Assembly: GCA_030141605.1 (NCBI GenBank)
Contig: JAQGDQ010000080.1
Coordinates: forward strand, 186,001 to 250,000
Direction: 5' to 3'
DNA: 64,000 bases
Origin: Tubiluchus corallicola
Taxonomy: Eukaryota > Animalia > Priapulida
The notes under the pieces were generated by a model, which did no database searches, had not been told where the DNA came from, and saw nothing but the letters and a program-made list of their open reading frames with translations. Shown here one piece after another: positions 3,414 to 28,900 of the stretch. A program made the translations under genes and the position numbers. Numbering within the stretch: the stretch's first letter is position 1; the number at the start of each line of letters is the position of its first letter.

Positions 3414-6400
3414 GTATGAGGATTTTTATTAGCATTAATATTTGTGTTTGGTTAAATGCTGTTACTGCCCATTAATTTTTTTGGCAAGTTGAACTGGACA
3501 TCAGAGACAGTATGCTTGCTGTGCACCTAAGATTATTTTAGTGCATTTTTAAAAAGAACCTTTAGAAAATAGGACATAACATGAACTGATTTTAAAATCA
3601 AAGGTTAATTGTTATCTGTCATATAAGTTCAACAATGATTGTTTTAGTCCTTCATTTTTTTCATGTTTCTTGGCAAAGATTCTCAGTCTTGTAATATAAT
3701 CTGTGAGAACTTAACACTTGACATGGATGGCATTTGCAATATTCAACACATTTTTGTGATGACCTTGATAAAGTTTATTGATCATATGCTTAGCTTAAAG
3801 TTGCTTTGCTTAAATTAATGAAATTCATATTTAACATTGCTTTTCTTTTTAATTTAAAGAGTTGTTTCTTTACATAAACAAGTTAATAAGGTAAGCTAAG
3901 ATTGACTAACCTTGTTCAAAGATGTTTAAGTTCTGCTTAAGCCATGTACAACTTTTATTTGTCCATTTGTATATAGTGAGCTGAATATGCACCAGTCGAG
4001 AGTGTTTGACACCAACTGTTTGTATTTGTACCTGTACTAAATCTGATAAAGAAAGTTTATGACCTTTTCTGAGCTGCACACGCACAAATTCTTATCTGTC
4101 TGTATTGCAGTTTAAACAACTTCAAGATGCCATTGTTCTCGTAGGATAGATCTAGCACACTCAAATATTATACAGTTGTTATATAACTGTCAAAGTATGA
4201 AATACACAAAAACAGTACAAATGGTGAGATCAGAGTTATCTTGTGTTAGATTTTTGACTAGATTAAAATACGCTGGTGAATAACATGAAAGGCTTGTTCA
4301 CCATTATAGTTGTCAATATGTTACTGAAGTATCCAAAACATTTGCAATTTACGAGAAAATTATTATTTTCTAATTTAAATGAGACCAGGCACAAGAGATT
4401 TTGATTGTCATTTGCATAGATTAACTTTCAAGGGAGAGATCAATGAATTACGTTGAGAAACTGATATTGTATTAGGTAACAACATTCCTACTTATTTAAA
4501 AGCTCCAAGTTAGCAGGAATGAATATTCTTAGTAATTTAAGTAATTTGTGTTAGCTGCCTTAAAGACCCATGATCAGCTTGCATCATAACTCGGAAGAAC
4601 AATTATCATTAAGCTTATTCATAAAGTAATGTAACTCATTTCTACTGAGCTATAGTTTTTTAGCTGCATGAATAAAATTCAGTGACTTTGCCCTTTAGTA
4701 ATAGAATTTAATATACACACAGGAGTGTAACAGAATTGCACACAATGTGTTATTGAGCAATTACATTGAAATACGTTTAATTAAGTTAAATATAACTTAT
4801 CATAACATCAACTTTCTGTTAAAAAATGCATACTGTTAGCACACATATAAGTGGTACTTATAAATAATCTACTCAAATAACTCCACCCTAATTTTACACA
4901 AGCTTGGCAAATATACTTGGTGTTCCACAACATCATGCGATGTAGCAATAAAAAAAGGGTATGTTAGGTAGTTTATTGCATATATAATGTTATATAAGCA
5001 TCTTATAAAAAACAAAATGGTGCTATTGATATAGTGCATTTTAATATAAATTTCTCCTGTTTATTAAAACTACTAATGATCATTACAGACATTACAATTA
5101 AGTTTATGTAAAAGATTTATATAATTGCACAAAATGATGTGCACACTTACCAATTCATTAAAGATGCTAAAAATGAAGGAACTAAATTGTATTTTGTTTC
5201 TTATTACCTGAAATGGTTACTGGTATACAAGCGATGATGTATTTTTAAAATCTGAATAAAATTGAAAATATAATAACATTGCTTTTTCTTTTGCAAGGTA
5301 CCATGCTTACAGAAAAATTGTCATTGTATTTCAACAATTAGGCAACACACATGTACTTAACATATTTAATTAAACTTCGTTGTTCGACATGAAAGATTCA
5401 TTTGACAATAAATAAATTTCCTAGCAGGCATAATGATTATATTTTTCATGTACTAAAAATATCCATAATACATCACAGACTTGACAAGCTTGATCATTTC
5501 TTAATTTAAATCACAGATATTATACTAAAAAATTGTAACATAGATTTCGTTTTCTCGTATAAATAATATGTGCACTATAAACATTGCGCAAATTATCATT
5601 AAGAGTTCCTGTATTGATGCAAGGAAGACTAGAAAATATGATTGCATATTAAGCAGGGATTACGTCAATACAAACCTTGCTACAGATAAAAATGCAAATC
5701 CTAATATCCACTTTTTATCTAGCAGTAATTGTGGTGAAGAATTTGACTGGTCTAGTGATTTCTCACTTTTACTTGCTTCTTTCTTTCCATTAAACATACG
5801 GTTTTGTATTTCTAGCAATTTTAATCTCTTCTTTGTTTGCACTTCTTGCTGCGTGCAGCCAATCGTGTGTAATTTATCCTCAGGCCAAAATGGGGCTTGG
5901 TTGAACTCATCACAGTCCACTTTGTCATCACCTACATTATGAAGTAACTTGTTAACATAATGCTTCCATGCTTCCGGGAGTTTGATAATTGATTCTTTTG
6001 CTAATTGGATAGCTGAATTAATACTGTGCTGAGTGAGACTCAATGTTTTACATTAGTAGGCTTTGCATAAGTATTTGGATTGGAATGTATGTTGCTAGTT
6101 TATTGGGCTGTTAGTTTGCAGTTGAATGAAAAGGAATGGTCATAATACAGATAGTACCTGTGTCATATGATTTAACTGGGTATCTTGCGTAAAAAATTTA
6201 GTGGCTGGCAATGATCCATAAGAGATTTATTTCAGTGTTTCTAATAACAGAAAGTTTTTTCTAGTAAAGAATTTGTTTACAAAGTGTTGGAAATATAATA
6301 TAAATAAATACTTACCATTTGTATCAGCTTCCTGAAAAGCTTGTTGTAGAAGTTTAACCAACTTCTTGTCTAGATCATCTCGTACTTTACCTACGGCAGC

Positions 6401-9400
6401 CATCAACTCTGCTTCGTTTACCATGCCATCCTCATTTTCATCATAGGAGCTGTGAATTAGCAAGTCTGTCCTGTTGTTTAATCTTGCTGCTATCACATAG
6501 ATGTATTGTGGTGTTTGTGATTTTGAATGTTTGCAGTCAGACACAGCTTGCTGTCTGGTTGGCAATCCTGCATTAGTAAAGTTTACATGAATATATTGTT
6601 TTCAAAGCTTTTGTTTGTTTTTCATTGCTGTAAATAATTTGTCCAACATCATTTAAAGTCAGTTACAATCCAACACCTTTGGATTAGATTATTTTATCTG
6701 ACACATAAAAATTAAATCCTATGATTAAATTAAAAACTGGTTAGGTCGTTCGGATGACTTTTTTAAACTATTATTGTACTATTATTAGTCATAATTCCTC
6801 TAATTTATCACTTACCATGTTTTTTGTTCAGAGCTAGTTCAATGATGCTGTAAGGCTTTATATTATAGGATTTTAGTTCACACCCATCAGCTAGTTCTGT
6901 TTTCTTATAAGAAAGAACTTGTTGTCTGGGTGGGTATGACTGCTGGCGCCAAAGCTGTCGCTTTATATCATCTGCAGTGTCAGTCAGGGTTACAACTGCT
7001 GTTAGCAAGGTTCCTTCTGGTGTTTTTATGTGAATTTGCATTTTATCACCTGTAAAATTAATTCATGTTGAAAATCATTTAAATCATAAAAGGCGACAAA
7101 ATTAAATTCTTTTGTAACAGCACAAACTATCAATTAGGTATATGTGCAATACGGAATGTTAATATTTTGAAATAAATTATTGTTTACATCATTTTTAACA
7201 CTAATTAATTAATAAAATAATTATTTTAAATTGTTGGCACATGTCATACTTCCTACCTAGTCTAGATGAAAATTACAAAAGAAGAATGATCAACTTTCCT
7301 TGTGTGTTTCAAATTTGCAAATATTTATTCTCTGCTTTTGTGTTTGCGATTTCATTGTATTTTTTACGTGAAAATAGAAATTACTGCAAACTTAGAGCGA
7401 CTGATCATAAATTTATTGAAATTGATCATAATATTCCAGCAGATTTAAACAATTTTATGGTTATGTTCATGGAGCCAGTTTGGTATTTATGTGCGAAAGA
7501 AATTTTCCTGTTTAAAGTAACGTGAATTTAATTTTTTGGCGTAGTCAAGGTTTCATGCTAATAAGCGCATTACGTGTGCAAGACATCATATACATTGCTT
7601 TTTTAGTGCTTGTTGTACATAACAATATTTCTTTTGCTTATTGTTATCTTTTCAGTTACTTCAATAATTTAATTTTATATAGAAAGTAAAGTAATCAAAA
7701 AGTTTAATGATAAGTATGCATTAAAGAAGCTTGTTTAGAACTCTTACCTTGCACAACATGTTCTGTATATCCCCATCCACATGTAAGCACTTGAGGTATT
7801 AGAAAAAATAGAATCACTACACTTATAAACATGTTTTTCATATTTGTCATCCCAATATCAGCATTCACCATCATATCAATTGCAGTATTTCACGTATAGG
7901 TTTTTCAATCTTGGGAGGTCTTCGTCTGTCTGATGCAAAGTCAAACTCTATTATGGCATTATGGCATGGTGTCGCCATCCCTGCCTGATATTACTTTTTT
8001 AAGTTCCGTGATTCATGTCATGCATTCTAAGAATGTGGGTATGTCTCGCACAACTTGGCATAAACCAGTCATGCTAAAAACTCTGTCTTGTACGTAAGTT
8101 GTTTAGAAGCATAAAGTTAATTGACGATGGTTATAGGACTGACGGTTTTACACACAGTATCACTCTATATATAGAGTTAAAATTTGCGTGTGGAAGTGAT
8201 TCACTTCACTTCCCGTCAGTGAGATTACATTTGTCGGAAAAGCATTCAAGAGCGTACATGTTTAGTGGCTAAAAAGGGTAATGCCACAATACTGTGTGGG
8301 TGTAAATAGGAAACTGTCAAACTTTCAACAAAAATAAAAATTCCCATGGCCAGCTAGGCAAACAAACAAATGGAAAACAAACAAATAAATAAACGAGGAA
8401 ATTGCCATATTGTGCCTTTACATAAGAAAAACGATCAGAATTGCACCCACCATGAAATTTAGAGTATCATATTCTCAGTCTTTGTCCTTTTTTGATGGCC
8501 AGTTTTGAGTCAATTTTATTTTGACATGTTACTCTTAAGAGTAAATGTTTTCTAATGTTTCACTGTGTGTGGCACGTAAAAATAAAAAGCTGGGCCAATG
8601 AATTCTGAAAGATGACGTTGTTTCCTGGCTGTTTTTGGCAGAGATTGTTTTAGAAAATGTAATACGTGTGTTTGCTAGCTAATTTATATTCCTTGGAATA
8701 GCAATACACCAGAAATTAAACGAACATTTTGTTTGTGTGTTACTGGCTTTATATTAGGAACTAATAAAAATAGTCTGACTGTCAAGATTATAAGTAAAAT
8801 CATTTACCATTGATTTTTGTCCTTTTTTGTTTGTACATTTAGCATAATTTTTTACTACTCATTAAAATATATTGTGTCTCAAAAGTCACTATACACTTTG
8901 ATTTCTAATTTCGTTTTTGAACTGTCCTCCAATCTCAGCTATCTCTGACATGAATCAAAAATGGTCTTTCGTGATACTTTTTATTTTATTTTTTACTGGA
9001 ACCTCATTGCCATGGTAACAACAGTAACATGAGAAATAGGTGCAGAATCAGCAAGCTGCGAGGTTGTTCGATCACCAATTGAAGTTCAGAGGAAATTCAG
9101 TGCACTGATTAGACTATACTATTATCTCACGATTAGCAATGCAGTTTTTCAACAAAGTGCAGCCCTTCTTCATTACTAATGGTATGGGAGAGACCTTCCC
9201 AATGCAAGACGGTCCTTGCCACTGGATTGGTCTCTGAAGCTCTTGAAGTCCCTGAAGAAAGTAGCAAAAAATAGCAAAGCCTATTAGTGTAGTATTTCTT
9301 TTTAGCTTTTAGTACCCTACCCAGTCTCTCTGAAATTTGAAACTATGTTCAAAACTGTCTGACTAGATCTCATCAATGTTTGCTCTTTTTCTATGTTTGC

Positions 9401-12400
9401 TCTTTTCATAATGTATCACCATGAAAAAAACAGCTAAATTATAGAAACTTTCTTGGTGATAACTTTGTTTTATGCTAAACTAGCTCTTCAGAAGCAGATT
9501 ACAGAAGTGTCAGTGGTGCATCACGCTTATTTTAAATAAGTCCTTATCACAGTATCTGCTGTGTTTTTGTTTTTGTGGGTTTATGGGTTTATAGGTAGCC
9601 ACCTGTTGTTCATTAAAAGTGATGCACAAATTCCCCATTCACAAGTTTCTAAACAATTTTTTCTTCAATGACTTTGCTTTTCATACTTATTTAAATCATC
9701 CAAACTATGCACTTCCATAACGTCATAGTTATTTGTTAGCACAAATATGTTTCCATCGTTAACCCAAGCCTTTTGAACTAATGGCTTCTTTTGTTTTACT
9801 TTCTTCAATAATCTCTTTCTCCTGTGCGTGAGGTGACGTTTTATTTTGATGTTGGAATCGTTTGCTACACGTTTCCGAGCGTGATGCAATGCATTGCGAT
9901 CGGACAGGCAGCTAAAGCGAACTAATATTGCACGACGTCTGTTTCTGTGTCTGCTTCTGCTTCCTGTTCTTTTGGCATATTCAATACTGTCTTTGGTGAG
10001 ATTCACACCTAATTCTGCAGCTACTGAGATCACGCCTAATTCTGCTTCACCAAGTTTTTTCATTTCTTTGTTAGCACTAATATTCTTGAACATGGTAGTT
10101 GCAAACGGTTCAGTTATCCCTTCAATAACCAGATCGTAGCGAAATATATTCTGCTGTAGTTGGTCTACTTCCAACATTAGATTGTTTTTCTGTTTTTTTA
10201 GATCCTCTATCAGGATATGTAGATCATCTTTGAGGTCAGTGTACATTTGCTCTTGCTTGTTTCCCACACAGGCTACAGCATTTATAAAGCTGTTGTCCCA
10301 TTGATCATTTATTGCATGTTCTTTTAAACAAAACTGTACATCACCATGGAGGCCTGGTGGCAAACCCTTCATTATTCCTTCATCATCACCTCGATAGTGA
10401 TGAGATGTGGTACTGGATGCTTCCTGAACTGCTTTTGAGGTAGATTTTGTTGTTGTTGTAGAGGATGCACTACTTTTCTGTCTTGCTGGTTCTGTTCAGA
10501 AAATTAAAAAATTTAAAAACAAAAAGGTGGAAACATGAAATCTATTGTTTTGGACCATAAAAGAGAACATCTCATTTCAATATAATGTACTCTACTGTAT
10601 AATGAATAACATATAGCATATATTAATTTCGGTGGTATATATATATATAAGGTCTGGACCCACAGATTTGCCAATGGGGATTTATTTTTAAAATCGGTCC
10701 CACCGGGAGGAACGGGGGAGAGCGAAAAAACTCCAAAAATGGCCATTTTTTGCCAGTTTTTTGCAAAACTTATACCTCTTATTTCTAGAGAACAAGAATG
10801 TGCCAAGGGCGGTGCTGGTAATGGCTGAATAGCCCATTCAATGGTGGGTGTAATAGTCATATTTAGATTTCACAGGAGGGTCACCAATGCCCGCTACGGG
10901 CATTTTCCCGAACCTAACTCCCAATTTTTTCGAAATTTTGATCAAACGGCATGCGGAACAAACATTCTAGCGGCCCCTGATGGACCCTCGAATGGAGATA
11001 TATAGCTCCTTAGAAAGAGGAGGAACAGGGCTACACGATGGTGTGGGCTGTATTGTAGGATGTCTCCACCCTGAGGAGCTGTGACGATTGATTGGAGGTT
11101 CCATTTCGGGCAATTTTCGCTTGGAAAACTGCTGATTCAAAGCCACTGTTCTGACGTCATCTATTATACTCTGCCTATAAACTTATAACTTTAATTCAGT
11201 AAAAGCTGCTGCTGGCTTTGTGTTAGAAATGAGGACTAGGTAGGACGTTCATGTATTTTTGATTATAAGTGTATTTATATGCAAAATTGTTTACGGGGCT
11301 TTTGCTTGTTAATAATTAATTCTGTTGATGAAATTGGAAAACAATGCAAGTAGCATAAATGCAGGCTTTCAGAATAGTTAGGCTGTTGAGTGACTGGATG
11401 GGTGAACAGGTTTGATACTTGTTTTGGCAAGTATCACTGACCATAATGATTTAGTCTGTTTACGTCACACAGGGAGGTTGGTTTTACATTATACAATTCT
11501 GCATCTACCCATGGCTAATAGCTAAGATACCTTTGTCCAGTAGCTTAATTTAGCCTTGATAATGAGTCAGGTTTAGATATCGGCTATCCAGTTTGACTAG
11601 GCCCTGCATTTGAAAGCTGGGTTACAGCTTACAGTAAAATTTCCAGGTTTGATTTTTCAATTTCATACAGCTGAAATTACATTTTAATGTAGTTTTATTT
11701 ATAACATCATCAGTTTATCTCAGCTTGAAGTAACCACACAGACAAAGGTAAAGCAATATTAACTAGACTTTTATTTATGTTATGGAGATGGACCAGTCGG
11801 TTATTTATATACTGATTCTGACAATGAAATTCTTGTATTGTATTTTTCGCTTCATGAAGTGTTTACTTGTCAGTAAGAAACTTTCTTTGTTATAAGCAGA
11901 TGTTTACTTATGTAGTTTGCTTTTTTGCAACTGGAGTAGCATAGTGTCAATTTCATTTTACAAACCTCTGCATTTTGGGTTTTCCCTTAAAATTGCTTCT
12001 CGCATCTTCGGTTTCCAAAATATCGCCCAGTAGAATTCCTGGCAGCTTAAAGCACTATCTCCTATAGAACAAGATCAAAATTAATACATAGTTTTGCATA
12101 AAATTAATCTTGTCCTGTATCTGTTGTAAAAGTATGTAAAATTAGGAAAGTATTTCAGCTAGCACAGGGAGCAAGTGTAATCGGACACATGTTGGAGTCA
12201 TTGTCACAATATTAATCAGAAGAATTTTTGTAAGCTAGATCAAGAATGTCAAGGATAGATGAGATATAATAGATTGTAACAAATCAAAATAATTTGTGTT
12301 AAGCGATTGAATTAAGAAATAATTTGGCAATAAATACAGATATTTGTAGAACTCTTTTGATTTAATAATGTTAGAATTATACTAACGGTTATGGTCAGCA

Positions 12401-15400
12401 GTTGTGAAGGCTTTGTTTACATTTTTTCTAGTTTCTTCATCGGTTATTTCCAGTTTTTCTAGGATTTCACTGACGTGAACAATGCCATCACCATTCAGAT
12501 CATAGGAACTGAGCACAAGAAGGTCCTTCCTGTTATTAAACTGACGTAGTATTGCATTCATAAATTCCCATTTAGCTTCCGTTATTGTCAAATCTGGAAA
12601 AAGCATGTAAATCACTGCAATTACATTTTAATATAAGGAAATTAATTAAGGTTAAATGTGAAATTCACAGTAAAGTGAATTTTTCTATTAAACATAATCA
12701 TATAGGTTTAGATCACTATTGCACGCTGCCCATCAAGTGTCTGATCTAACAGGCACTTGACAGTAATGTCTAATGCAGTGAAAATTTTACAAAACACACC
12801 TTTTAGTTCAGGAGTCCACTTGATTTAATAATTTTTTAGGTCAAAATATTTGATATTGTTGTTGTTTTGCCACTAGTAAAATTGTGGTGCTGCCCAAAAA
12901 AAAACAAATGTAGCTTTTTCCTCAAAATCGGCCTTTATAGAGGATGAAGTACTAAGTTATTCGTGTATATCAAGTAATGTCAAACCTGATATTTCTACCA
13001 AATGATTTCATATTATTGAAATACACATATCAGGATTTTCTGCTTTGGCATTGATTGTAGTGATTGCCAAAAAGTGGTCATTTCTTCAAGGTTTAGAGAG
13101 CCAAGGAAATGGCTTTGTGCAATTAACATTCCTATATGAATAGGTCACTTTGTCTGTCAGTCACTGTAAAAGCAGTTTGGAAGGACAAATGTTGAGAAGT
13201 TTGTTGTACAAAGGCCTGAATGCAGTCGACGTCAAAGTACTCTAGAATTTCTAAATGAACTGCACAGTTATTATGTGATAAATTTTCATGAAATTGACTT
13301 GTAAGCCCAAGTGGGCTGGAAACAGCTTTAATAACATTTTACAGTATTAATTAACACATGAATTATTACATTGTTATTATCATATGTTTATGTCAATAAA
13401 GATATTCAATCAATCAATCAATCTAAGAAACTTTTTGTTTTTAAAGAAGAGTTGTTGGATTTCTGCTTGGGAAAATGAAAAAACATGCCACTTTCATTAT
13501 ATATTCAGATTTTTGCCTTTGCAGCTGACAACCTTTTAATGTAAAGAGATTAACGTTTAAGATGTTGATAAACCGCATTTATTTTTTTTATCAAAGTAAA
13601 GCTGATCATGAACTTAAAACTCATCAGGCATTGAGTATTTGTTCATTTTGTTTGTCATTGCACTCAACAATTACGTTGGATTTTTGGAGTTTCTCCTGAA
13701 TGAGCTCTTAAGATCATAATGATTTCAATATAATTCTGAATTGAACTTAAATGTTATGTTCATATTTTGTCTTTTTGATCATAACATTTTTTTACTGACT
13801 CTGGCTGTCCTTGTGTTTAAAGCAAGGACAAAAAACTCATAATATGCATTACAATAATTATAACATATGTCATCCTGTTTTTGTTGCATTACAACTACAT
13901 AGTAATTAATAAAACATTCTTACCTAAATTTAGTGGCCTAGTAGGCAAGCCAAAATCAGGCAAAATAACACTAGGCTTGCCGCCTGGACCAGGGGGACCT
14001 ATTATAGGAGGTAGTGGTCCTGGTACACTGGGAACAACACCCCATCCGCATCCCAGTACCTCGTGGCTTACCGAACTACACAGTAGTATTACCAAGCACG
14101 TTATTTTCATTGTGACGTATCATTAATCCAAATTACCCAACAGGAGAAAAATCCCATGTTGCCTGCAAGCGTTTACAGGATGCCTACTCGTTTCCTTTCA
14201 GCACTGCTTGTATCCTGGGCTCGTCACAGCTATGACAACTTGTAACATTAGACGTAGTTAGATGGGTAATTTTCTGCAGCAAGTGTTGAGACTTTCTGAG
14301 AAAATCCCGCCTTGCTACATTGGGTGCTATAATTAGTTAGCTTTACCATTTAGTTCATTAAGTGTAATTGTTAATGCAAATGAGAATGTGTAGATATTAC
14401 TGGCATTCGAGTGCTTTATATGATATAATATCTGATGATTTTGTATTTTAAATATAACCAGGTCTATGGGATTTTAGTCTGCAGCGCACTCTGTATGCGC
14501 CCTGCTAGGAACTTTTGTTTCTCATAGGAGGTCGCATCTATGATGCTTCACTAATAAAAGTTTGAAATTATTTAGGGTGGTGGTTTTTACAAGCAACTGT
14601 TGCCACTTCCCACGTTAACATGCAACTTTGTTTGAAGTTTTTATGAATGGCACAGCTATGATGCAAGCAACTGCAAATTAACGTTTGGAAGCTTTAGCTG
14701 CACATGGGTTACATCTTTAAGACTTCGCTAACTCTTGGCAGGGTTACAGTATTATGAATTTAGGCGTTTGGAAGTCTAGCTGTCAAATTTTTCAGGTTCA
14801 AGATTGTGGGCCAGGATTATGACTTTCTAGAAACTCTGTAGTTTGTACTTATTCTGTACTTATTGAATGTGATTTGTTTTTTAATTTGTAAGAAAGTTAA
14901 CTAGTCACGTTTGTTGCACGAGAAATTTAGACATTTTCTAGTGTTAGCCCATTTAATGGCAATTATGTTGAATTTTCTTCTTGCTTTCACTCGCGCACTT
15001 TATGTAAGCATTTCTATATTTAACCATTACATATAGTACAGTAGAATATTTGCTACGCTGAGGATATCACGTGACTCTTTTGCCACGAGTGACGCCAAAG
15101 TTTGACACTTGCCAAAAATTTTCGCGACTGCGTATTCTGCCCAGGTCGCAAATCATTCGTGAAAAGTTTTAAATAAGTTCGCGCGTTCTCGGCACTTTTT
15201 TGCCAGTTTTGAGCTTTTTTCTCGAGAGAATACCACACGAAATTCGACATGTTTGCGACATATTTGCAGCTGTTTGGGTGACTTCTACGATACTTATACG
15301 ACAAGCCGAATGTTGCACGACATTTGCCCGAGTACGTTACGATCGTTTCACGGCCATTTCACAGAATTTTGGCGAAAAGAAGTGCGAGACAACCGAGGTT

Positions 15401-18400
15401 GTCCAAAATGTTCAAAAATAGTCGCAAAGTGGTGGCAGCGTCTCAAAATGTTTTCCAAGATTTCCTGGAGTTCAGAAAACACACGACAGTTATTTATTTT
15501 TATTTTAATGCAAAAGCCAAGTCTCGCGGGAAGCTGAGCTTATTTTAATGTATGGGGAAAATTTAGAAAATTTCAGCATTAAAATTGTGATAAGCATCTC
15601 GTGTAATTAGTAAAATCAATTTAAAGTCGTGATTACTTTACTCTTGGGCGCGCTAATTTTAGCGAAAAATGACGTCATCCGGTTTCCGTGCAAAATAAAA
15701 TCTTATCCCGCCAAGTAGACTAAAGCTATGTAACCACTTTAAATTTGATCGTAATTGCTCGAATGGCTAATTTCTAGATAAACACAGTTAAACACAAAAT
15801 TAGAATAACGGAACTCCTAAGCAAACTGTAGAAATTGTGCAAGTACCTTGACACAGCTTGTCTTCACGGCATTCAGGCTGCCTAGCATACACCAACTTAT
15901 GTCGTTTCTTTTAAATATGCCGGCATCAACGTTCGTTTGGCAGGAGATAAGAAATGTATTAAAAGCTAATGGTAAATAGTTTTATGATTAGCCTGTACAA
16001 GCACTAAATGTGAATTTTTCACTACATACATAAATTAAGCAGTCTAGCAGTCTCAACGATCATTGTTTTTAAAGCGTTTACGTTCATTTATAAATGTCTG
16101 CACACAATCACATATTTTACATTTATTTACAAAACCTAAATTTTCGTCTCCATGAAGTAACAAACGTATGATATTCCTTTATGCCAAATTTCTGATGTCG
16201 TCACTATCTTATAAAGCATTAAGCTTAACATAATGTGGGCAATTGAGAACAAATGTTCATATGTACATGTATCAGGAGATGCACTCCATGTACAGAAGGG
16301 CGATACTAAAGAACCATCATTACTTTTTACAATTTTTAAATGATAGGTCATAATTTTTTGTCTAAATCCTGTGCGTATGCGCGTATGGTGAATTGAACTT
16401 GGCTGTTTGCTGTAAAAAATAGTTTGGATGTTTATTAAAATCTAAGTGCTTTTTAGTTCAAGTTTAAATATTGATAAAGATCTTATTTTTACGTTTAGTT
16501 ATGGGAAGTTTCATTATTTCACGGCTTCTTTGTACTTCGGACATTCTTTACTCCATGTCAAATGCTCACCTCAGCTGTTAATGCGCTGTTCAGTTTCGGA
16601 TTCACAGGGCTTTTGCGAACACTTCTCTTCAAACAGGACTTGATCGACGCCGCTTAGCTACACGAATGTATTTGTAACAGTTGTAAAGATAATAGGCCAC
16701 TCCACTCAAGCTAAGGATCGCTTAACTTTGGCAGTAAGCGCATACCTTGAGTTCATGACCATTCATTTATTTTTCCGGAATTCATATAGAAGCTTTATGC
16801 AGGTATGCACATGCATGTTTCATCATTTTGCACAGATTGGAAGGGAGGATTGGGAGGTTGGCACATTGTCATTGTCATTGCAAGATTTTACTATTTAGAA
16901 ATATAGGTAATAATAATAATAATATAATAATAATAATAATAACAATAACAATAATAGTAATTGTAATAGTAATAGTAATAGTAATAGTAATAGTAATAGT
17001 AATAGTAATAGTAATAGTAATAGTAATAGTAATAATATTTGAAACCACCAATTGAAAAAAACAAGTTCTATGGTATTTTATTTTGATCGTCACATAATAT
17101 GTATTAAAAGTCTGCTAGTTAAGCATCTTCTGGATTTAAATATTGATTTTACCCGACTCATAAGACATATTGCTATAGTTGTGATCGATTTTCAAATGAT
17201 TAGCCTGGAGGTGAATTAGCCCGCGAATCCTCGGGCTAATTACGTCTACTATGTAATGTAGGCCTAAAACGTTTTGAGAGTTAATACGTGGGCACATATG
17301 GTGGTGATCATATTTATCGTCAGTTAATTGTTACGTTCACGTCATACATAATTACGTATTGCTTTACCCTCAATCCGCCCCATACTTCAAACGCCCCAGG
17401 GAGAAATTATTTTGTAGCTGACACGCCAAAAAAGGTGATGCATGTATACAAGGGTTAACACATTTGGTTACAATGTAAACGGCAAAACTTTCAAATGTTA
17501 ACCATTCGCGACTATATCACTTATTAGAAGCATTTGCATGTGTAATAGTAAGTGTACTGTAATGAAAGTTACTAGCAATAAACCGTTTGTCTTAAGTTTC
17601 TGTCATTATAACTTCACCATAATTAGCATTCATTCAAAGGCTTTTGCTCTCTACACATTTCGATTGTACAGCAGATATAACAACATTTATTTTCAGTGAT
17701 TTGGTTTGTTTGTTTTTTATCAAATATTACACTTGACAAGATGTTCAAAGTTGCAGTTCATAAGTTCTTCATCAAATAGGGTTCCTTCTGGGCACTGTCT
17801 AAGGTAAAACTTTCCCCAGTTGCAATGGAGCCATCTTCTGCAATTTGTTGGATCTGGAAAATTGCCAAATGGTTCCGGACAGTAAAACTGTGCATCACCT
17901 TCATAAGGTCCTACAGGAACAGTTTGACCGACATTAGGTGGCTTTGATCCTACAAAGTAAAGGGTTGCTATTAGTTAATTATTTTGATGGAGCAAATTTT
18001 ATATTGTTTTGTCATCAGTAAGACAAAAATGTTTGCTCATGGTTTATAATTTTTGTATAGCCCTATGCAAAAATTGAAACAATTTTACAATTTGAATATA
18101 TTTGGGGTCTTTGAAGGTAAGCAGCTTTTGACTATACAGGCTTAAAGCCATAGGAGTTCCTTTGTGAAATGTTTAACGTACCTACAGACAATGTGCAAGT
18201 TACTTTTTCCCTGTCACTTCCAGGCCAGAATGGAGCGTTTCGGAATTCTTGACATGAAATCGCAAAGTCTCCTGAAATGATTACATATTTTTATTAGCAC
18301 GTATCCAGATAGGAACAATGAACTATTCCGTTTGTATCGAAGGGAAAGTTACTGATTAATATTCGAGTGCTGTCTTCACCGCATCATATACAAGTCCTGA

Positions 18401-19938
18401 TACCTTATGTATAAGTGCCGAAGAGCGATTATCTTAGGCACAAGGGGTGTATTTATTATTTCAAACCAGTTTTGCTCTGGTATTACTTTGGTATTACTGC
18501 TTACTGATTAAGACTCACCTATATCTGATATCTTGCGTATTACAGTGTGAAAACTCTTTAATAACATTAGTTTTCATTTGCTTTTTGTTTTAATTTGACT
18601 GATCTGCCGGTTATCTTACTTCACTTCCGTTCAAATTTGTTTTAACGCTTCATAGTTTTAACAATTTGAACAACTGAGTAGTTTTTGGCTTTATTTACGC
18701 AGAACGCATTCAAGCGTGGGTCAGGCCAAAAAGCACTACTTTTTTACATTTACCCTAAGTCTTACCATTTACGTCTGCATCGGTGAATGCTAAGATGGCC
18801 ATCTGTTTAAGGTAATCATCATAGACTATTTTGAGAGCATTCAGGATTTCCGTTAGATCTATTTTTCCATCTTGATTCTGGTCATAAGTGTTGAAGTTTA
18901 ATAAGCGCATCTGATCCCTGTGGCCAGTCGCTAACTTATAGAAGTAGAAATATCTGTCGTCAATGTTCTCCATTTCTTTACTTTGCAGTTGATCAGTTTC
19001 ATAAGCTGTAATAGACTTTTAATGAAAATAATGTTCATGTTATTTTTACAATCACGAAGCTAGCTATAAGCATGTACGTGTACTTTATGGCACAGCTAAG
19101 ATTATTATCAAGATGCTTCTGTCGCTGTAACATTCTTAATGTTATCGGCTCAATTTATGTGTAAAATCGAATAATAAAAATATTACATTGAATTGATGGC
19201 GTCTGGATAACTATTGTTATGCAATGTACGGTGATGTAAGAGATTTACTGAAAATTTGTGAAATTCCAAAAAACTTAAAATTACAAACAATTCAAGTTAA
19301 TTGAAAGAAACAATACTGACCCGGTCTTGAAGCTCCTGGTGCCGAAGACCATCCACATCCACAGCTAAGTTTTAATATTGTCTCGAATAAAATTACGCAC
19401 AAACTCACTTGTTTGTTCATTGTCAACTGTCGAAAGATAAAAAACACAAAGCCAGATGTATGCTAACACATTCACGTAGTTCACATTAGTCGTCAGTAAT
19501 GATGCTATAGCACTTCCCAATTCTCGATATTATAATAATTATATGAATGTGCTTTTGTTTAATTAAGCCAAGCTATGAGCATTTTTTGTAACAGTTTTTA
19601 ACATAACTCGTTCTGTACTTGCAAGTAAAATGTTGCAGATCTTTGTAGAACCTGTGTAGACTCGATCTGTGTAAAAGCTGTGAGTCTCGACGTCATATTC
19701 TTTGCTGCATTTATCCTTCACTGTCTAGGCGGCTTAACTTGAGGAGGTGTTTATCTTGTCAAATTTACTTTACGTCTTATGTTTAATTTACAGCGTGTAA
19801 AACGCATCTTCAACAAAGGCTTTTTCTTCCCTATTCAATAGACTATTTTTAGAGTCTTGGTTGAGTCAAACCAAGTCTGGTGAAATCAGGTTAGAGGATG
19901 ATTTTATAGAGGAGAGGAAAAGTGATTTGCAGTGTGAC

Positions 19939-19985
<47 letters not shown>

Positions 19986-22900
19986 TCACTTGTATATATA
20001 TTGCTCTTCTATATATATATATATATATATATATAGAAGAGCAAGGCTTCGTTCCACGTACTCATATTAATCGTTATCTGAGACAGGATCTGCTTCTTTT
20101 CACGATTAGTAATTAATAATTGATGAAAACTGCCAAACCTGCTAGAAATTTAGGCAACGAATTCTCTCTCTGTGTGTGCAACTTGCTGGCCGACTATCTT
20201 TTTATTTTACTTTATTAATATAGTGAAGAAGACGTTACTGCCTGTTTGCGGTCTTAGTTAAACTTTTAGCATATGCATGTCCCAGCCTCTACTGAGGGCC
20301 CTCTAGTATCTGTGGCTTTAGCCGTCTAGCATCTATAGTTTTACCGAGTTACAATTTACTGATTTTTTTTTGTGTTTCTGGAGCGTGATCCCATTTAAAA
20401 GAAGGTGAGAAAAAAGTTGGCGACATACTGACTCGCAAACTTACGAAGTTTCAAAATATTCGAGCGAATACAACAGCAATTGAATAACTTCAGTGTAAAT
20501 CGGCACGCATTGGGCGCTCATAATGGGATAGGTAGCCAAGCAGACTTACAGTGTGGTGAGCTGTAGGTTTCAGTTGATTCACTTGTGAACTAATCAATCA
20601 TAAATGTGCTAGTGTGTATAATTAACTCTTTTACTGTAATCTAATACGAAGCACTTTTCTTTACGCAATTCTTTTGATAGTAAATTTTCTAAAGATGTTA
20701 GTTGACAAATAATAATATTAAAAAAACAGAAAAGTGTGGGAACTTGGGACTAGGGAGTATTTTTCGCAAGTTTATAAATTTTCTAAATGCAAAAAAGACG
20801 CGTTAATGTTTGGTTTGAAGTTTCGGTTTGAAGGGACACTTGTATTATGTCGAACCGAGCACACAGTCACTGTTCATCTGTTTCAGTGTTTTCCCCCAGA
20901 TAAAAGTTTAATTAAGTGAATGGTAAGATTTACTACTAGTAATAAATTTTTGATTTTTATATAATCGTTCTAACCAAGTGTTTTGTTTTATTTTTGTCTT
21001 AAGTAAATACTGTCATTTATAGTGGTCTAGGCGGGTAAGTCAAATAGTGCATGACTATAAACATGTTACAGGCAAAGTATGAAACCGGGCATTCTATTGA
21101 ATACTTAGGCATTTTATGGAGTGCTTAACCAAATCAGGCAAAGCGTCTAAATAATTTCTTTTACACATTTTCCTAGGCTTTTCTACACTTTTCACATTAT
21201 ACATAATACAAGAGTTTGTTTAGGCACAGTGTGTAATTCTTTGATTTTGAATATACTTTCATTAGGTATTTCATGGAATACTGAATGAATTTTAGTTCAT
21301 GTACAAATAAAACAAATGGTCAATTGTTTTGATATAAGTTTTCTAAGCATAGCCAATTATATATTAGGGAATGTGTGAAATAAGTCTTCTTTCTATGTGC
21401 TTGGAAATTTGTATGGTGTAACGATCTGACGATTAGGGGGTAGGTTGTTTGATCGATGGTAGTCGCTGGATAACAAATGAACTGGCCTGTGCGAAAACTC
21501 TTAGAAGGACTTAGTAATAAAGCTGCAATAAGTGCTTCGTGTAACTATGTAACTAGTAAAATTACTTTAAAATCGCGATCATTTTGTGCTTGGATGCATT
21601 CTTGTTTCAATGACGTTATTCGTCTTGAAGAAAAGTTGCGCACTATCAATCTTCATCAAATGTATAATTAGTTTTTACAAAAAAATTAGATAGCTTAAGA
21701 TATTTTATAAAATGTCTAAATTACACATTGCCTATAACATATATACTGTTCACTTGATAGATTACATAGACGATCTACGCGAAAGATTACGTAGATGGTA
21801 ACAAATAACTTTGTCTAGCAAAATGTGATGTTTGTAATCTTATTATTAGAACATTCGAGGTACTGTAGAACCTCTTTTGGCCAGAATGTTGTGTTTAAAA
21901 ATTCTGAACAAGTAATCCCGAATGAACCTGAAAAAAGTAAAAAGACAAATTTAAGTAGTAACCGTAAATCCAAGCTTAAGCGGCGTTTATCAGACATCCG
22001 GAATGCGTTGCGCTATTGTGTATCCACTTGAGAATAAACAGCCTAACTGCAGAATAACGCAACAACGCAGGCCTGATCATTTAACCGGTGCATTGAAAAC
22101 AATATACAGTTGTTTTTATCTGTAACGTAATAATGCATACGCAGTAACGCGTAACGCATTCCGGATGTCTGGTAAATGACGCTTTAAGAAAAATTTACAC
22201 GTTTTTAATTCATTGCGGAAAGTTACTAGTAGCTAGTTGAAATTTATGGCTTTTATAATGGTTATCCGTGCATCTTGTTTGAACTTGAGTTTTATTAGAT
22301 TTTGAAAGCACTGTTTCAACAGCTTTACAAGTCTGCGAGAGTAGTATGCTACTAGTGATTTAATGCATAAGAACACTGCATTACATAACGAACAAAACAA
22401 TTTCATTTTTAATAGGCTTGGCATACATCATTGCAAATACTAATAAACAAAGATTATGGAATATGGATGGAATCGCGGATATGATTTATTTTTGTTCTCT
22501 AATATTTAAAGCAAAATATCTATCTTACCATTTGTGTCGACTTGTCGAAAGACTGAATAAGCAAGGCCTTCAATATTTGTATTTCCGTTTGTTTTTAAAG
22601 CTTCTCTAACTTCGTGAAAATGAATGCAATTGTCATTATCCGAGTCGAAGTACGAAAAGTCGAAATACGGCGAGATTAGAATCCCACGCAAAATTTCAAA
22701 AATTTCACAAGCTACAAGAGGTTTTATGTCATCTGACCATACCACGCTGTTAATGAATTCCCCACAGCTAATCCGTCCATCATCTATATTAAACAGATTG
22801 CCGAACAGTTAGTTATTGATTAAATTATAGCGAAGAATAACGTAACATGACTTTCTATGTTAGTACATATTCAATTATGTTTTTGTGATGACTGTACTTT

Positions 22901-25900
22901 TTTCCCTTCCTTTGCTTACCAGCTGCTGCTGCGTTTGTTTTTTTCATGATTTTCTCATTTCTTTCTCAGGCATTGTACGCTTTGTAGTACTTTTTTTATT
23001 ATATACGCTTTCATTTAGTTTTGTGTAGTCAGTTGTGTAGTTATACTTATGTAGCAGCATGAATAAACTGTAGAGATGATTTTCTAAAAGTTTTGTATAA
23101 CATGGATTACAGTAGTTATATAGCAGACAAGCAGACGAACTGGCATCTATGCTGACATGCAGCAATGCAGGCTGATAGATGACAGCATATCACCTGTGAG
23201 CAGTAAAAGTTAAGTCGGCTAGCAGAAATCTTACAAAACTAGTACTAGACGGCAGAAGCTTGCAACAACTGCACAAATAGCAACTCTCCCAAGTTTATAT
23301 GTTGTTAATTGTATTATTTAGATGTATACTGGAATTTTTAATGAAAGGTAAAGGTTCTGAGTAGGTGCAGTAATCTCTAAATATAAGGTTTTTTCGTCAG
23401 TCATATTTCTGCATGCCAGTTCAGATTGCACGTTCTGTGTACATAATTTAATTCGCTAGCTATTAATTTTTTACCCGTACTGTACATTCTACACCGAGTA
23501 TGGTTAAGACACTATTGTGTATACCAACTACTTGTCATGCAGAATCATGGTGGTGTTTCATAAAAATCAATTTGTTTCAAGATTTGTTCAAGCTTTACTA
23601 AAAAATTCACAGGGTCAATGTTTATTCTAATGTCATGCAAAATATGCCCTAATGGCCTATATGCAGTAGAACCAGCATGCAAATAATAAATTATGTTAAA
23701 CTTTTTATTTAATATGTAAAAATCTTATTTATTGAAAGTGCATAAAATTTTTACAACTGTTACATTTTTTTTAATTTACCAAATTATTTTGAAATGTTAC
23801 TCATAAATGTAGTCCCATTTAAGCCCGCAGTTTTACTCGGTAGGCCATGTAGTAAGAATATACAGTACTTCAATTTTCAGAGTAAAAGATAAGCCTTCCA
23901 AAGCGGCAAATACTCTCTATTAAAAAAATTGAAACAAATAATTATACTGACATATTTGCATCAGCGTGAGGAGTATGTCCTTGACGGAAGAATTATTGTT
24001 CTTTGATAACAATCGGTAAATATTAAGTAATTTACTTTCTGGTTGTACTAGCTTATGAGCACATCGGCTAATTAAAAATAACAAATGGATAGTTAGCAGT
24101 CAACTAAATTAAAATCTTCTGACAGTGTGAGAGCTAGATAGCTAGTCTCACGAGCTTATCTACTAACTGCTAGCTAAAAATCAAGTACATATAGCTAATT
24201 AACTAAAACTGTATACTCATATGAACTATTAGAGGGTTAATCCGTAGTTGGTTCTATAAATTTTGTTATTTATTATTACCATATTTAGACTTGACATTGG
24301 ATCGAAAATTGTATAATGTCCTGTTTGTTACAGGTCAAAATTTCCTTAATTGTTTAGTTTTTGTTACCGTCCGTGAAGATAGCCAATTTTTGTTGGAAAC
24401 AAGTTGGACAGTAAAATTTTGAATATCTTTACAATTTGCTTCTGTGATTACTTGAAAGTGATACACAAAAATAGTTTTAGAGCTGCACTAGTAGAGGCTA
24501 TTGCAAGTTAATTTAAACCCTCGTTGTAGTCATCATATTTCTGAAGTTTACATATCCATTGTTCTGTAAAATTTTTGATTTCTTCTAATTATTAGTAACT
24601 AAGTAACTACGAATTCTTCTAATTATTTACAGAAATTATAAGTTATCAACATGTTTCGAGGTGAGATTCATTGTTACAAGGTACAAGTAAAAATTTTAAA
24701 ATGTTGAGAAATACGCAGGGCATGCATACTTGCCTTCACGAACGTAACCCAACTCGTCGCTAGAACTTTGAACTGCTTAGTGCGTGGGTAGTGTAGTGCG
24801 CTTATTATACCTCGGGTGCCAGTACGACATCCATATACTTATTATGATTACTTGCAGAGAATAAATCTCTGGCATTTATTAGATACGCAATGTTGTGAAA
24901 TGGCAGTTACAAATTATGCAGTGATGTACATTTGTTCAACTTACCGTCAATGTCAGTATCTTGCCGTATGGCTACAGCCAGCGTCAAGTTTAAATGTAAA
25001 TTTAACACAGACTGCAGCTCATTGACGCTGATGAAACCATCACGCGGTGAAACGTCATATGTGCTAAACCGTAGCAACTCAGTTCTGTTGTTTTCCCTAT
25101 AAAAGTTGTATAATTCCGTGTAGTCAATATCTGGATTTGTGCTGGATGTCCGACGAATCCCAGGCGATATTGCACCTCCGCAAGCTTCTGCTCGTTTTTG
25201 AAAAAATATTATAGACAAAATAATAATTATTGTTAAGAATCTGTTTGTCGCGTTTGAAGAAGTTAATGAAAAAGCCATCTTTCAACTGTGTTGTGTGAAA
25301 CACTCTCGTAAATTACTTTACTTGAGCTTGACGTAGACCTTCCGTATATTTCCTCGTTAACTGGGCTGTTTACTTCCGTCTTTCCTAGCAATTCCAGTCA
25401 CTTTGGTGCAACTTTTAAAGGGAAGTATCATAATATTGACTTCCTTTCCATACTCAAACACGTGTTGTTGTGTTCACTTGCTGTTTTCGTATTGAGTCTG
25501 TTAGAGTAGTATATACGTACTTGGATATTCTTACGATTTTAGTGGTGACAGTAACTGTACAACCCGTGTATATGGGTTGAATATTCTGAGGTCCTGAATA
25601 TTGTGTCCGGAAAGCAAACTGTCTGTCAGTCCGATTTTGAAACTAGAATTAGCCAGTTGAGTGATAAACTTGAAGCTCTAGACAATAAAATGAGCTGCAG
25701 CTCAAAACCATTGTGGAGTGATATAGTATCGATGCCTAGAGCCGAGAATAGTGCCAAGCTGTCAACAGAATACAAGTCTGACGACAAAATGAAATTAACC
25801 AAAACCATCTATGATCCGTCTCGTACTGTAATAATCAGCAATGTAAACGATAAAGAAATTGTTAAATCAAACTTCTCCATCGAAAAACAATTATCCCACC

Positions 25901-28900
25901 ACTTCCCTCTAACGCAGTTTGACAACATCAGAAAGACAGCTAAAGGTATGATACAAGTGCAACTTAAGCACAAAGAAGAAGCAAAGTTAATGATAGATAC
26001 CTGGCTGCTTTCGTACCTGGGCACAGAGACTTCAGCTAGATGGCCTCTACAAAATACCATTGGCTTACTACGAGACTGCGACCTAAGCTTGACCGATGAT
26101 CAACTATTAGATGAGATTAGTAAACATTACTCTGACGTGAAAGTGGACAGGTTCAAGAAAAAAGATGGAACGGTGCTTACCCTAGCTAAAGTATATTTTA
26201 ATTCAGCTGATGATTTAGAAACTGCTATCTTTGATGGCATTCCCATTGGTAATATGTACTGTCAAGTCGAGAAGTTCATAGTCGCTAACAAACCAGTACA
26301 GTGCTTCAACTGCTACAAATATAACCATGTAGCAAAATGGTGCAAATCTAAAACTGTCTGTGGAAAATGTTCATCTAGTCATAAAACCAGCAATTGTAGC
26401 AATGAACGTGTAAAATATTCAAACTGTGGTGGCGCGCACGAGGCGTGGTACAGGGAGTGCTGGAAATATAAAGAAGCGTTATCCATGAGAGAGTCTAATA
26501 AAACTCCTTCTAGCAACATTCAGTAATATTCACAACGTGAACAGTTACGGAAACACTAATAACAATCCTACAAACAAAAACTTTTTTTCTTTCTATCACT
26601 CCAACGTACGAAGCCTCCTAGCGAACAACGAATCCTTTAAGTTGGACGAGTTGCAGTTAGTCGCTAACACCAACAATTATGATGTCATCGTTCTGACAGA
26701 AACATGGCTAGATCAATCCATAGCAAATGATGAAATTCGTCTTTCCGGTTTCCAAGATCCAGTCAGAAAAGATCGGGACAGAAATGGTGGTGGAGTAGCA
26801 TTTTATGCGGCCAATCACATACATTTTAAAACACGGACTGAGTTGTTACCACAGAATCTGTTTGAATTTATGTGGATAGAGATCAGTTTAAAGGATAATA
26901 CACTCTATATGTGCATTTGTTATAGGTCCCCATCCCAAGATGCAGCAGGTGAAGACCGATTTATTGCAGCACTAAATGAATATTACAATAACCTACTAAC
27001 CTCTCAACCTAAGCACCCCTATAGCATTGTATTTGTTGGCGACTTTAACGCCAAATGTAAAGCCTGGGACCAGGCAGAGCTAAACGAAGATCCAATGGGC
27101 CCTAAATTAAATAATTTTGTTGTACAAAATCAATTGTTCCAGTTAATTACTGAACCCACTCGAGTAACTAGTACGTCAAAGTCTGTACTGGATTTGATTA
27201 TCACACACTCACCTAGATTATTTACTAACTACAGTGTGTTTCCACAAATCTTTACATGCGATCATAACCCTATTTTTGGGAAAATTTGTGTCAAAATTTC
27301 AGTACGTCATGCTTTCAAAAGAAAGGTATATAATTATAATTTAGCAGATTGACCAGCATTAAATCAACAAATCTCTGCTGCAAATTGGGAGGCTGTGCTT
27401 TCAAATGAATCTGTTGATTGTTGTTTTTCTATTATTTGTTGACAATCTAGTGAAAATGATTGATTCTTGTGTGCCTAATCAAATTGTAACAATACGCCCA
27501 CGCGATAAGCCTTGGATGAATAGTCACGTTCGAAAGCTTAGAGTACAAAAAGAAAAGGCGCACAGAAATTATAAATTAAACAGGACGAACGCTTCGTGGC
27601 AGTCCTATACTACTATTAGAAATAAGTACAACAATGCTGTTAAAAAAGCCAAACGTGACTATTCAGACAAACTGAACGAGAAGCTATTGAATCCTGAAAC
27701 ATGCCCTAAAGTCTGGTGGGAAATTACTAAAAGTTTTTACAAAAATACGTGTGACTATTTTATTCCTCCCATTATAGATGAAGCTGGTGTTGTCACAAGT
27801 GATGCGATTTCCAAGTGCAATGCATTTAACAATTACTTTGCCCAGCAGTGCCGTTTGAACATTTCAAATGCTTCATTACCCAGATTCGTATCGAAGACTG
27901 ATACATATATGTCTCACATTACTGTACACGAAGATTTAGTGAAAACACTATTAAATAACGTCAGTATGAGCAAATCTGTAGGTCCTCAAATCTCATTTAA
28001 GTTTTTCGTTTGGTAAGAAACATTTTTCATTTGGTAAACCTCCAATGTCAGTGCATCATACGCGCATGAGAATCGGATTTTCTCAGCTAAACTATGACCT
28101 TTTCTCTAAAGGCTGTAAAGATAATAACGGTCATCCAATATTGCCGAATTGTAACTGTGGATATCGATTTGAGTCTGCTGAACACTTTTTGTTGCACTGC
28201 CCATTGCATCAACTAGCTAGGGTAGTTATGTTTGATAAATTAAATGCAATACTTCTGCCCGAAAGCCTTAATATAGCTGCCTTAGGAAATAATGATCTGT
28301 TGAAGTTGTTATTATTCGGAAAAGACGAATTTAACTATGTTACTAACTGAAAAATATTCCAATGTATACATGACTTTATATTACGTACTAAACGCTTCCA
28401 GTAGTTTCTATCTGATATAAAATGCATAATTCTTAAATAATCGTACATTAATATTTACTAACCGTCATTTTCTACTACTGTCTAATGTATCACTGTAGTA
28501 AAACTTTAGTATACTAAAGTATACTAAAAACTAAGTATAGTCTATTCTTACTGTAAATGTTCTTGTAAATAGTGTATAAAGTCTGTTGTGGTGAGGATCC
28601 TAAATCATGTTGTACAAACTGTCTGATCCAGTCCTAAATAAATTATGTTTAAACTAACCCGTGTGCAATCGAAGAAAAATTCGTAGACGCTGGACGTATT
28701 GACACGACAATTTTCATGTTTCGCTTTAATCAGTTTGTAATTTAATTTATTACTGAAACATATAAAGAAGAGATTTTAATTCATTTCGAAATATGTAACT
28801 CATGATTGTGGAATCACAGCATGCAACACTGTCAACACACACGTCCATACTTCTACGAGAATGGTTTTGTCGATCGAAATCCATACGTTTTTGCGTTTCG

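Follow-up and report, generated by a model that had tools for sequence, protein, structure and literature searches.

A predicted secreted EF-hand protein of Tubiluchus corallicola with a ubiquitin-fold domain that lacks the conjugation residues

Ubiquitin domains are almost always cytosolic or nuclear, as the preliminary description of the locus studied here stated, and this is a fair generalization, although ubiquitins with signal peptides are known in cyst nematodes and in Bacteroides. The nematode examples are the secreted ubiquitin extension proteins Hs-UBI1 and GrUBCEP12, as presented in PMC5632807 and PMC5705921, whereas BfUbb of Bacteroides fragilis is portrayed in the latter source as a stand-alone antibacterial toxin, 84% similar to human ubiquitin. 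In the account given in PMC5487736, the Toxoplasma apicoplast protein PUBL requires its diglycine and functions in plastid import. PMC1796856 describes transcobalamin C-terminal (SLBB) beta-grasp domains as ligand-binding modules of secreted or surface proteins, including those of animals. Extracellular EF-hand and chitin-binding modules are reported for lophotrochozoan shell matrix proteins in PMC13425148, a paper whose main text contains no occurrence of the word "ubiquitin". The combination of signal peptide, ubiquitin fold and EF-hand was not found in the literature searched.

The gene described here shares with Hs-UBI1 and GrUBCEP12, so far as these sources describe them, an animal origin and a signal sequence (predicted here) followed by a ubiquitin domain; however, those proteins pair a ubiquitin that can be processed with a short C-terminal peptide, while here there is no diglycine and 173 residues follow the domain. 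The likeness to BfUbb lies in the signal peptide (again a prediction in our case), the ubiquitin fold and the missing terminal glycine, and BfUbb is described as acting outside the producing cell, but it is a bacterial, stand-alone toxin. With PUBL, as characterized in its source, it has in common a ubiquitin-derived domain passing through the secretory pathway (as predicted here), but PUBL needs its diglycine. The SLBB domains, in the account cited, likewise exemplify a beta-grasp used as an extracellular module, yet they form a separate beta-grasp superfamily that is not ubiquitin-derived. The shell matrix proteins, compared by the module content reported for them, have extracellular EF-hand and CBM_14 modules in common with one paralog of the gene (paralog C, see below).

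The window analysed here is the whole stretch of 64,000 nt. Within it, four minus-strand exons (7874-7748, 7049-6816, 6567-6316 and 5931-5660) separated by GT-AG introns, all in phase 1, join into a frame of 294 aa over a genomic span of 2,215 nt. The coding part of exon 1 (7748..7874) encodes a predicted signal peptide (residues 1-31, 7874-7782) followed by the predicted mature start Cys32-Gly-Trp-Gly, and ends in a phase-1 donor. Exon 2 (6816..7049) encodes the whole ubiquitin-like domain, is in phase 1 at either end and has splice sites that are both near consensus (acceptor TTTTACAG, donor GTAAGT); its 234 nt are a multiple of 3, so the reading frame survives its skipping, as had been proposed. 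Exon 3 (6316..6567, phase 1-1) comprises EF-hand 1 (loop at 6442-6407), the start of the EF-hand 2 loop and a pattern-based N-glycosylation sequon at Asn152. Exon 4 (5660..5931) encodes the end of EF-hand 2 with Cys211 and Cys230, a basic helix with a KR site, a polar linker and, by sequence pattern, a candidate GPI site at Asn268 (5743-5741) and a hydrophobic tail (Trp279-Thr294, 5710-5663) ahead of the stop codon. A TATA-like element (8167..8173) and an AATAAA (5060..5065), both on the minus strand and recognized by pattern only, are a possible promoter and poly(A) signal. The rebuilt model has the same boundaries as the preliminary description (phase 1-1 exon 6816-7049, junctions 7748 and 6567) and recovers its order of signal-peptide (predicted), ubiquitin-like and EF-hand exons.

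A single 26.7-kb intron of a plus-strand kinesin gene (3414..30162), across which the motor-domain motifs resume in register, contains on its opposite strand a tandem array of four secreted-type EF-hand paralogs, to which the gene belongs. It alone of the four has the ubiquitin exon. The other three, all on the minus strand and each with a predicted signal, are: (i) paralog B (11960..14110, 165 aa), with signal, Cys-Gly-Trp-Gly and a Pro-rich stretch in its first exon, then an EF exon and a tail; (ii) paralog C (17720..19420, 219 aa), with signal, EF exon, tail and a chitin-binding CBM_14 exon (E-value of 2e-13; joint 19005-19321), identical to the protein P0151 at 189 of 215 residues; and (iii) paralog D (21815..25278, 233 aa), with signal and EF-hand in one exon, a second EF exon and a tail. 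The hydrophobic tail is missing in B, C and D. All ten introns of the four genes are in phase 1. An avidin gene is also present within the window. As a chance control, open phase-1/phase-1 cassettes of 200-400 nt were counted on the two strands of the window; there were 10, each of them in or overlapping exons of the EF-hand genes or an avidin gene.

A homolog of 290 aa, P0001, aligns to the 294-aa protein without gaps through all three exon junctions, with 68/78 identical residues in the ubiquitin exon, 70/84 in the EF exon and 80/88 in the last exon (83–91% per exon). It was the only match both to the EF exon (among 38 candidates) and to the ubiquitin exon (among 168). An exhaustive search with P0001 gave 3,922 matches, swamped by ubiquitin repeats, and among the best 150 of these 3,922 the EF motif occurred only in P0001 itself. 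An EF-exon profile matched 5 of 6,969 candidates (proteins of at least 147 aa), namely P0001, P0151, two long multi-EF proteins and one calmodulin-like protein. In the ESM Atlas search every score was under 0.8. One metagenome locus, from 83 stretches, was rejected as a relative, its match being 30 residues long amid bacterial-looking ORFs. The longest P0001 contig (Logan) is 1,690 nt, which is below the genomic span. Because P0001 runs through all three junctions, exon 2 is, as read from this one protein from one contig, included in the relative's intronless copy. This copy is most likely an mRNA; a retrocopy would give an identical picture. The source collection was assumed to consist of Logan Prodigal calls; Prodigal does not splice. 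Logan's own proteins were called with Prodigal, as stated in PMC12424806. In run X1, unspliced contigs with 0–1 differences cover parts of the gene, and these may come from the source sample and not be independent; run X2 (presumed RNA) gave no contig on the gene at 85% or 80% likeness, which is evidence neither for inclusion nor for skipping of exon 2.

Exon 2 encodes a real, whole ubiquitin-fold domain without the conjugation residues. It matches the Pfam family of ubiquitin and type II ubiquitin-like domains (PF00240) with 41.8 bits (cut-off 25.4, E-value of 9.4e-11) and aligns over residues 1-76 of the ubiquitin unit with 28/76 identities. A structure model built on an input alignment of ubiquitin repeats reached a pLDDT of 92.1, shows the full beta-grasp fold with a TM-score of about 0.95 to ubiquitin and has ubiquitins as its best PDB matches; the single-sequence fold of P0001 had a pLDDT of 42.9. 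Hydrophobic character is kept at the core residues. In agreement with the preliminary description, which had claimed a full ubiquitin fold without diglycine, the domain ends in H-G as opposed to the G-G of ubiquitin, and positions 72-76 read N, K, K, H, G in both the gene and P0001. L8, I44, H68 and V70 are replaced by P, S, E and A(T), so that the Ile44 patch is gone; K48 and K63 are T48 and P63, both lysines being absent in gene and P0001, and R42, R72, R74 and G75 are missing from both alike. The features of a conjugatable ubiquitin-type modifier (Gly-Gly, Arg72/Arg74, the Leu8/Ile44/His68/Val70 patch, K48/K63) were thus not found in exon 2, which differs from ubiquitin and type II ubiquitin-like domains also in its place behind a predicted signal peptide.

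It is likely that a normally intracellular fold was recruited here to serve as an extracellular binding module, because the tagging residues are gone and the domain is preceded by a predicted secretion signal and followed by a predicted calcium-binding EF-hand pair. With moderate confidence, the four-exon gene is taken to encode a predicted secreted, presumably GPI-anchored protein in which the ubiquitin fold is a plain binding module, not a tag, placed before the EF-hand pair. We infer a surface or matrix calcium-binding protein with a repurposed ubiquitin module. The signal would be cleaved, very probably after Thr31, and the tail would then be replaced, probably at Asn268, by GPI. Both EF loops would be constantly loaded with calcium outside the cell, a Cys211-Cys230 disulfide would brace the EF-hand pair, and the ubiquitin domain, at the membrane-distal tip, would bind a partner that belongs to the cell coat or the matrix, a role analogous to that of the chitin-binding exon of paralog C as a binding module.

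The signal peptide of exon 1 is strongly predicted by pattern. There are five in-frame ATGs (7874, then 7871, 7850, 7841 and 7832), the 11-residue hydropathy peak is 3.37, and Lys precedes the hydrophobic stretch and an acidic residue follows it. Hand analysis of the family (four paralogs and two homologs) showed in 6/6 sequences that the N-terminus is hydrophobic and that small residues occupy -3/-1 before a conserved Cys-Gly; P0001 has Ala-Leu-Ala ahead of the Cys. Of the two EF loops, each 12 residues long, one begins at residue 163 and the other, interrupted by intron 3, at residue 202; in the gene and P0001 both carry D/N/D at positions 1, 3 and 5 and E at 12 (EF-hand_1 on P0001: 32.8 bits, cut-off 25.4). 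The GPI anchor is a plausible prediction: N-x-S at 268-270 is found in gene and P0001, and the tail consists of a polar linker and a 16-residue hydrophobic end, whose best 11-residue hydropathy is 2.13, with no 19-residue window above 1.5 and one internal Arg. This weak hydrophobicity with an Arg inside, together with the lack of such a tail in any of the three paralogs and the KR at 239-240, identical in P0001, speaks for a soluble or matrix-bound secreted protein that retains the ubiquitin domain, either with a tail that is not a GPI signal or with an ectodomain cut at the KR site after the EF pair. This is the strongest competitor, though unlikely, as linker, small residues, spacer and hydrophobic end follow the usual GPI order and are kept in gene and P0001, and the KR site is without the upstream Arg that a furin site has.

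Judged from the conservative changes in P0001, exon 2 looks to be under constraint. The 10 changes between the two ubiquitin exons have a mean BLOSUM score of 1.4 (neutral point mutation gives -0.28); in a neutral simulation, based on this one sequence pair and a simple mutation model, a stop codon arose in 1,862/4,000 runs and the observed score was reached in 4 of 2,138 stop-free runs. Applied to the EF exon (122/1,690 runs) and to the last exon (288/2,213 runs), this test gave no significant result. The conservative nature of these changes, the presence of the exon in the sole homolog found and the near-consensus splice sites on either side make it quite improbable that exon 2 is a tolerated passenger or minor cassette and that the main product skips it, even though skipping preserves the frame and restores the layout of paralogs B and C, which that product would resemble. 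Slightly less probable still is a released ubiquitin mimic acting, like BfUbb or the nematode ubiquitins, on microbes or another organism's cells: the ubiquitins known to have signal peptides act as toxins or effectors, BfUbb, as described in PMC5705921, likewise lacks the terminal glycine, and a chitin-binding domain occurs in one of the nearby paralogs and an avidin gene in the window, but a 28/76 match with the recognised surfaces gone would make a poor mimic, and no obvious cleavage site would free the domain. The least probable reading, an uncleaved N-terminus and a cytosolic protein like ordinary ubiquitin-domain proteins, draws on the start ambiguity left by the five ATGs, against which stand the family-wide -3/-1 pattern with its flanking Lys and acid, the conserved cysteine pair and N-glycosylation sequons, and the extracellular chitin-binding domain behind a similar N-terminus in paralog C.

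As three adjoining paralogs are without the ubiquitin exon, exon 2 fits a late gain by one tandem paralog. In this respect the exon shuffling proposed earlier is partly supported, but the term may be too narrow, since the gene may equally well have captured a ubiquitin coding exon. One tandem paralog would have acquired a ubiquitin-derived exon within its phase-1 first intron, most simply a ubiquitin coding exon along with the acceptor belonging to it; the ubiquitin surfaces would later have drifted, with the core retained. The argument for capture is one of coinciding boundaries: the equivalent of ubiquitin Met1 lies at 7041, 8 nt past the acceptor, and the donor falls within the codon aligned to Gly76, GTAAGT being a consensus donor anyway. 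More tentatively, a captured whole ubiquitin exon, with its own upstream acceptor and the Gly76 codon as new donor, may possibly have become a recognition domain displayed outside the cell on a GPI anchor and linked to the calcium-binding pair, by which ubiquitin would join the set of phase-1 exons from which extracellular proteins are assembled.

The reach of the finding is limited to one gene and one close homolog so far, with a function that we infer. If true, it would represent a clean, datable transfer of a core intracellular fold into the animal extracellular proteome through the gain of one exon, for which the sister genes next door, without the ubiquitin exon, are natural controls, and it would allow a direct test of what the ubiquitin fold binds once it is free of the conjugation machinery.

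The Ubl-EF gene is read from the minus strand in four exons, namely exon 1 (signal region, 7874-7748), exon 2 (ubiquitin exon, 7049-6816), exon 3 (EF exon, 6567-6316) and the last exon (5931-5660), which join into a 294-aa frame over a start-to-stop genomic span of 2,215 nt. Its introns (698, 248 and 384 nt) have GT-AG junctions and are each in phase 1, which confirmed the preliminary description of a phase 1-1 ubiquitin exon between the signal-peptide and EF exons. As a control for chance, open phase-1/phase-1 cassettes of 200-400 nt were sought on both strands of the window, and all 10 lay in or overlapped exons of the EF-hand family or of a secreted avidin-family gene (53261-53659, plus strand; Pfam Avidin, E 3.2e-07).

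Four paralogs lie in tandem on the minus strand, with Ubl-EF as the last, and all of them are located within a single 26.7-kb intron (3414-30162) of a kinesin gene on the plus strand, presumably KIF7/KIF27, in which the motor motifs continue in register past the intron. All introns of the four EF-hand genes (10/10) are in phase 1. Paralog B (11960-14110) carries a proline-rich stretch, with a Pro/Gly-rich mature N-terminus (13924-14110), paralog C (17720-19420) a chitin-binding CBM_14 exon (E 2e-13) joined to the EF-hand pair, paralog D (21815-25278) a second EF exon, and Ubl-EF the ubiquitin exon and a tail. A joint in X2, a sequencing run taken as RNA by guess, matches exactly the first intron predicted for paralog C (19005-19321) and supports the modelling. 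P0151, a spliced homolog of paralog C (189/215 residues identical), together with this joint backs the union of the EF-hand pair and the CBM_14 exon. Another X2 contig, which differs at 20 of 234 nt, covers paralog B (13933-14166). The kinesin intron also holds a broken non-LTR retroelement (25555-28347, plus strand; endonuclease domain, E 7.4e-15) and an ORF1-like frame (9668-10495, minus strand), while high-copy repeats lie at ~10600-11300 and ~15560-15900 and two exons of a rhodopsin-family 7TM receptor at 61140-62797 (minus strand). The DNA is AT-rich (GC ~0.3-0.38), and the avidin, receptor and retroelement sequences are those of an animal.

The EF exon and the ubiquitin exon, used as separate queries, led to a single protein each (1/38 and 1/168 candidates, respectively), in both cases P0001, a 290-aa homolog without internal gaps relative to the 294-aa model and spanning all three junctions. 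P0001 was most likely read from mRNA of a related population or species, since its source, a single Logan contig of 1,690 nt, is shorter than the genomic span and Prodigal calls genes without splicing; a retrocopy is a possible alternative. The Logan paper names Prodigal as its gene caller (PMC12424806). A TATA-like element at 8173 and an AATAAA at 5065 (minus strand, both sequence patterns) would yield an mRNA of ~1.75 kb, near the length of this contig. The gene is likely expressed with its ubiquitin exon; no X2 contig fell on it. Identity to P0001 is 22/29 in the signal region, 68/78 in the ubiquitin exon, 70/84 in the EF exon and 80/88 in the last exon. The ubiquitin exon differs from P0001 by ten changes, which are more conservative than expected from neutral point mutation (4/2,138 stop-free runs), while neither the EF exon (122/1,690) nor the last exon (288/2,213) reached significance in this test; for this one sequence pair and simple mutation model, constraint on the ubiquitin exon is suggested.

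Exon 2 matches Pfam ubiquitin above the family cut-off (E 9.4e-11), aligns with ubiquitin without gaps, and gave the only match to a fetched ubiquitin unit in the window (7041-6814, residues 1-76). Its model, built from an alignment with 15 rows of ubiquitin repeats or homologous sequences, reached a pLDDT of 92.1 and TM-scores of 0.88-0.96 against ubiquitin structures; because such an alignment biases the model towards ubiquitin, the predicted fold confirms compatibility only. The domain shares 28/76 residues with ubiquitin and retains its hydrophobic core positions, but the Leu8-Ile44-His68-Val70 patch is replaced by P, S, E and A, Arg42, Arg72, Arg74 and Gly75 are absent, and only K6 and K27 are left of the seven lysines. 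P0001 agrees in all these losses, and the ubiquitin fold without diglycine proposed earlier is borne out. Ubiquitin relies on such residues for activation, cutting by deubiquitinases and reading by the usual binding domains, none of which is open to this domain. It is neither a conjugatable ubiquitin nor a nematode-type extension protein, but a ubiquitin-like domain of the integral kind whose surfaces are new. Two additional cysteines, Cys99 at the surface of the ubiquitin fold and Cys132 (exons 7049-6816 and 6567-6316, minus strand), are retained in P0001 and might form a disulfide tying the domain.

Since the ubiquitin exon occurs in Ubl-EF alone and the other paralogs each carry other additions, its gain in one copy would, from the layouts of the four genes, be the simplest account. 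The last repeats of polyubiquitin genes end with an extra residue, and the acceptor of their 5' intron lies close to the ATG. From the start of the exon to the Met1-equivalent codon there are 8 nt, and the end of the exon falls within the Gly76-equivalent codon, with Lys-stop next in the intron. These boundaries, together with the intron often present in the 5' untranslated region of polyubiquitin genes (PMC3680475), would make capture of a ubiquitin coding exon a plausible route; shuffling from another gene is a plausible alternative.

At the N-terminus a Lys is accompanied by a hydrophobic core that peaks at 3.37, and Val-Leu-Thr precedes Cys32 (Ala-Leu-Ala in P0001); in the four paralogs and both homologs the conserved Cys-Gly is preceded by small residues at -3 and -1. 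A family cysteine in the second EF loop is followed by another 19 or 24 residues on, a pair that occurs twice in paralog D and suggests a disulfide. From this pattern, the cysteine pair and the chitin-binding domain of paralog C, entry into the secretory pathway appears likely. The mature chains of all four paralogs would begin with Cys-Gly (7781, 14050, 19357 and 25182, minus strand). Hedgehog has the same start and is palmitoylated there; by analogy, lipidation of the family cysteine may be put forward as an idea. A linker, small residues, a spacer and a hydrophobic end follow each other in a GPI signal; in the Ubl-EF C-terminus, a polar linker is joined by Asn268-x-Ser270, a spacer and a stretch of 16 residues that are mostly hydrophobic. 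These features are retained in P0001 and missing from the paralogs, but the hydropathy is only moderate and the stretch includes one Arg. A GTGAG donor-like site (5767, minus strand) lies in exon 4 shortly ahead of this candidate signal. Splicing there could produce an isoform without the tail; in P0001 the site is read through.

We lean towards a GPI-anchored surface protein, in which a calcium-loaded EF pair would form the stalk and the ubiquitin fold a tip binding a coat or matrix partner. A soluble or shed form, sharing the secretory features and dispensing with the anchor, is a lesser possibility; taken jointly, these two readings make an extracellular ubiquitin domain probable. That the exon is a passenger or is skipped seems improbable beside its presence in P0001 and its conservative changes, a ubiquitin-mimic effector, given the lost patch, still more so, and a cytosolic protein, given the N-terminus, the least probable. 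We infer that the domain functions as an integral ubiquitin-like interaction module, within a family of secreted EF-hand proteins of modular build.

Known signal-peptide ubiquitins include Hs-UBI1 and GrUBCEP12 of cyst nematodes (PMC5632807), BfUbb, which like the Ubl-EF domain lacks the terminal glycine (PMC5705921), and apicoplast PUBL, which requires its diglycine (PMC5487736). Animal transcobalamins have secreted beta-grasp domains of another superfamily (PMC1796856), and the shell proteomes of lophotrochozoans repeatedly contain EF-hand and chitin-binding domains (PMC13425148). No secreted protein with ubiquitin-like and EF-hand domains appeared in titles and abstract starts of the openly readable literature, where supplementary annotation tables could hide one. 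Among the best 150 of 3,922 matches to P0001, a hydrophobic N-terminus was present in 6 of the 149 that were not P0001 itself. One of these six, P0149 (1,367 aa, from another source), has a signal-like N-terminus and eight ubiquitin-like stretches without RGG; it may be a second case, with secreted ubiquitin-like repeats, and hints at extracellular ubiquitin-like domains elsewhere.
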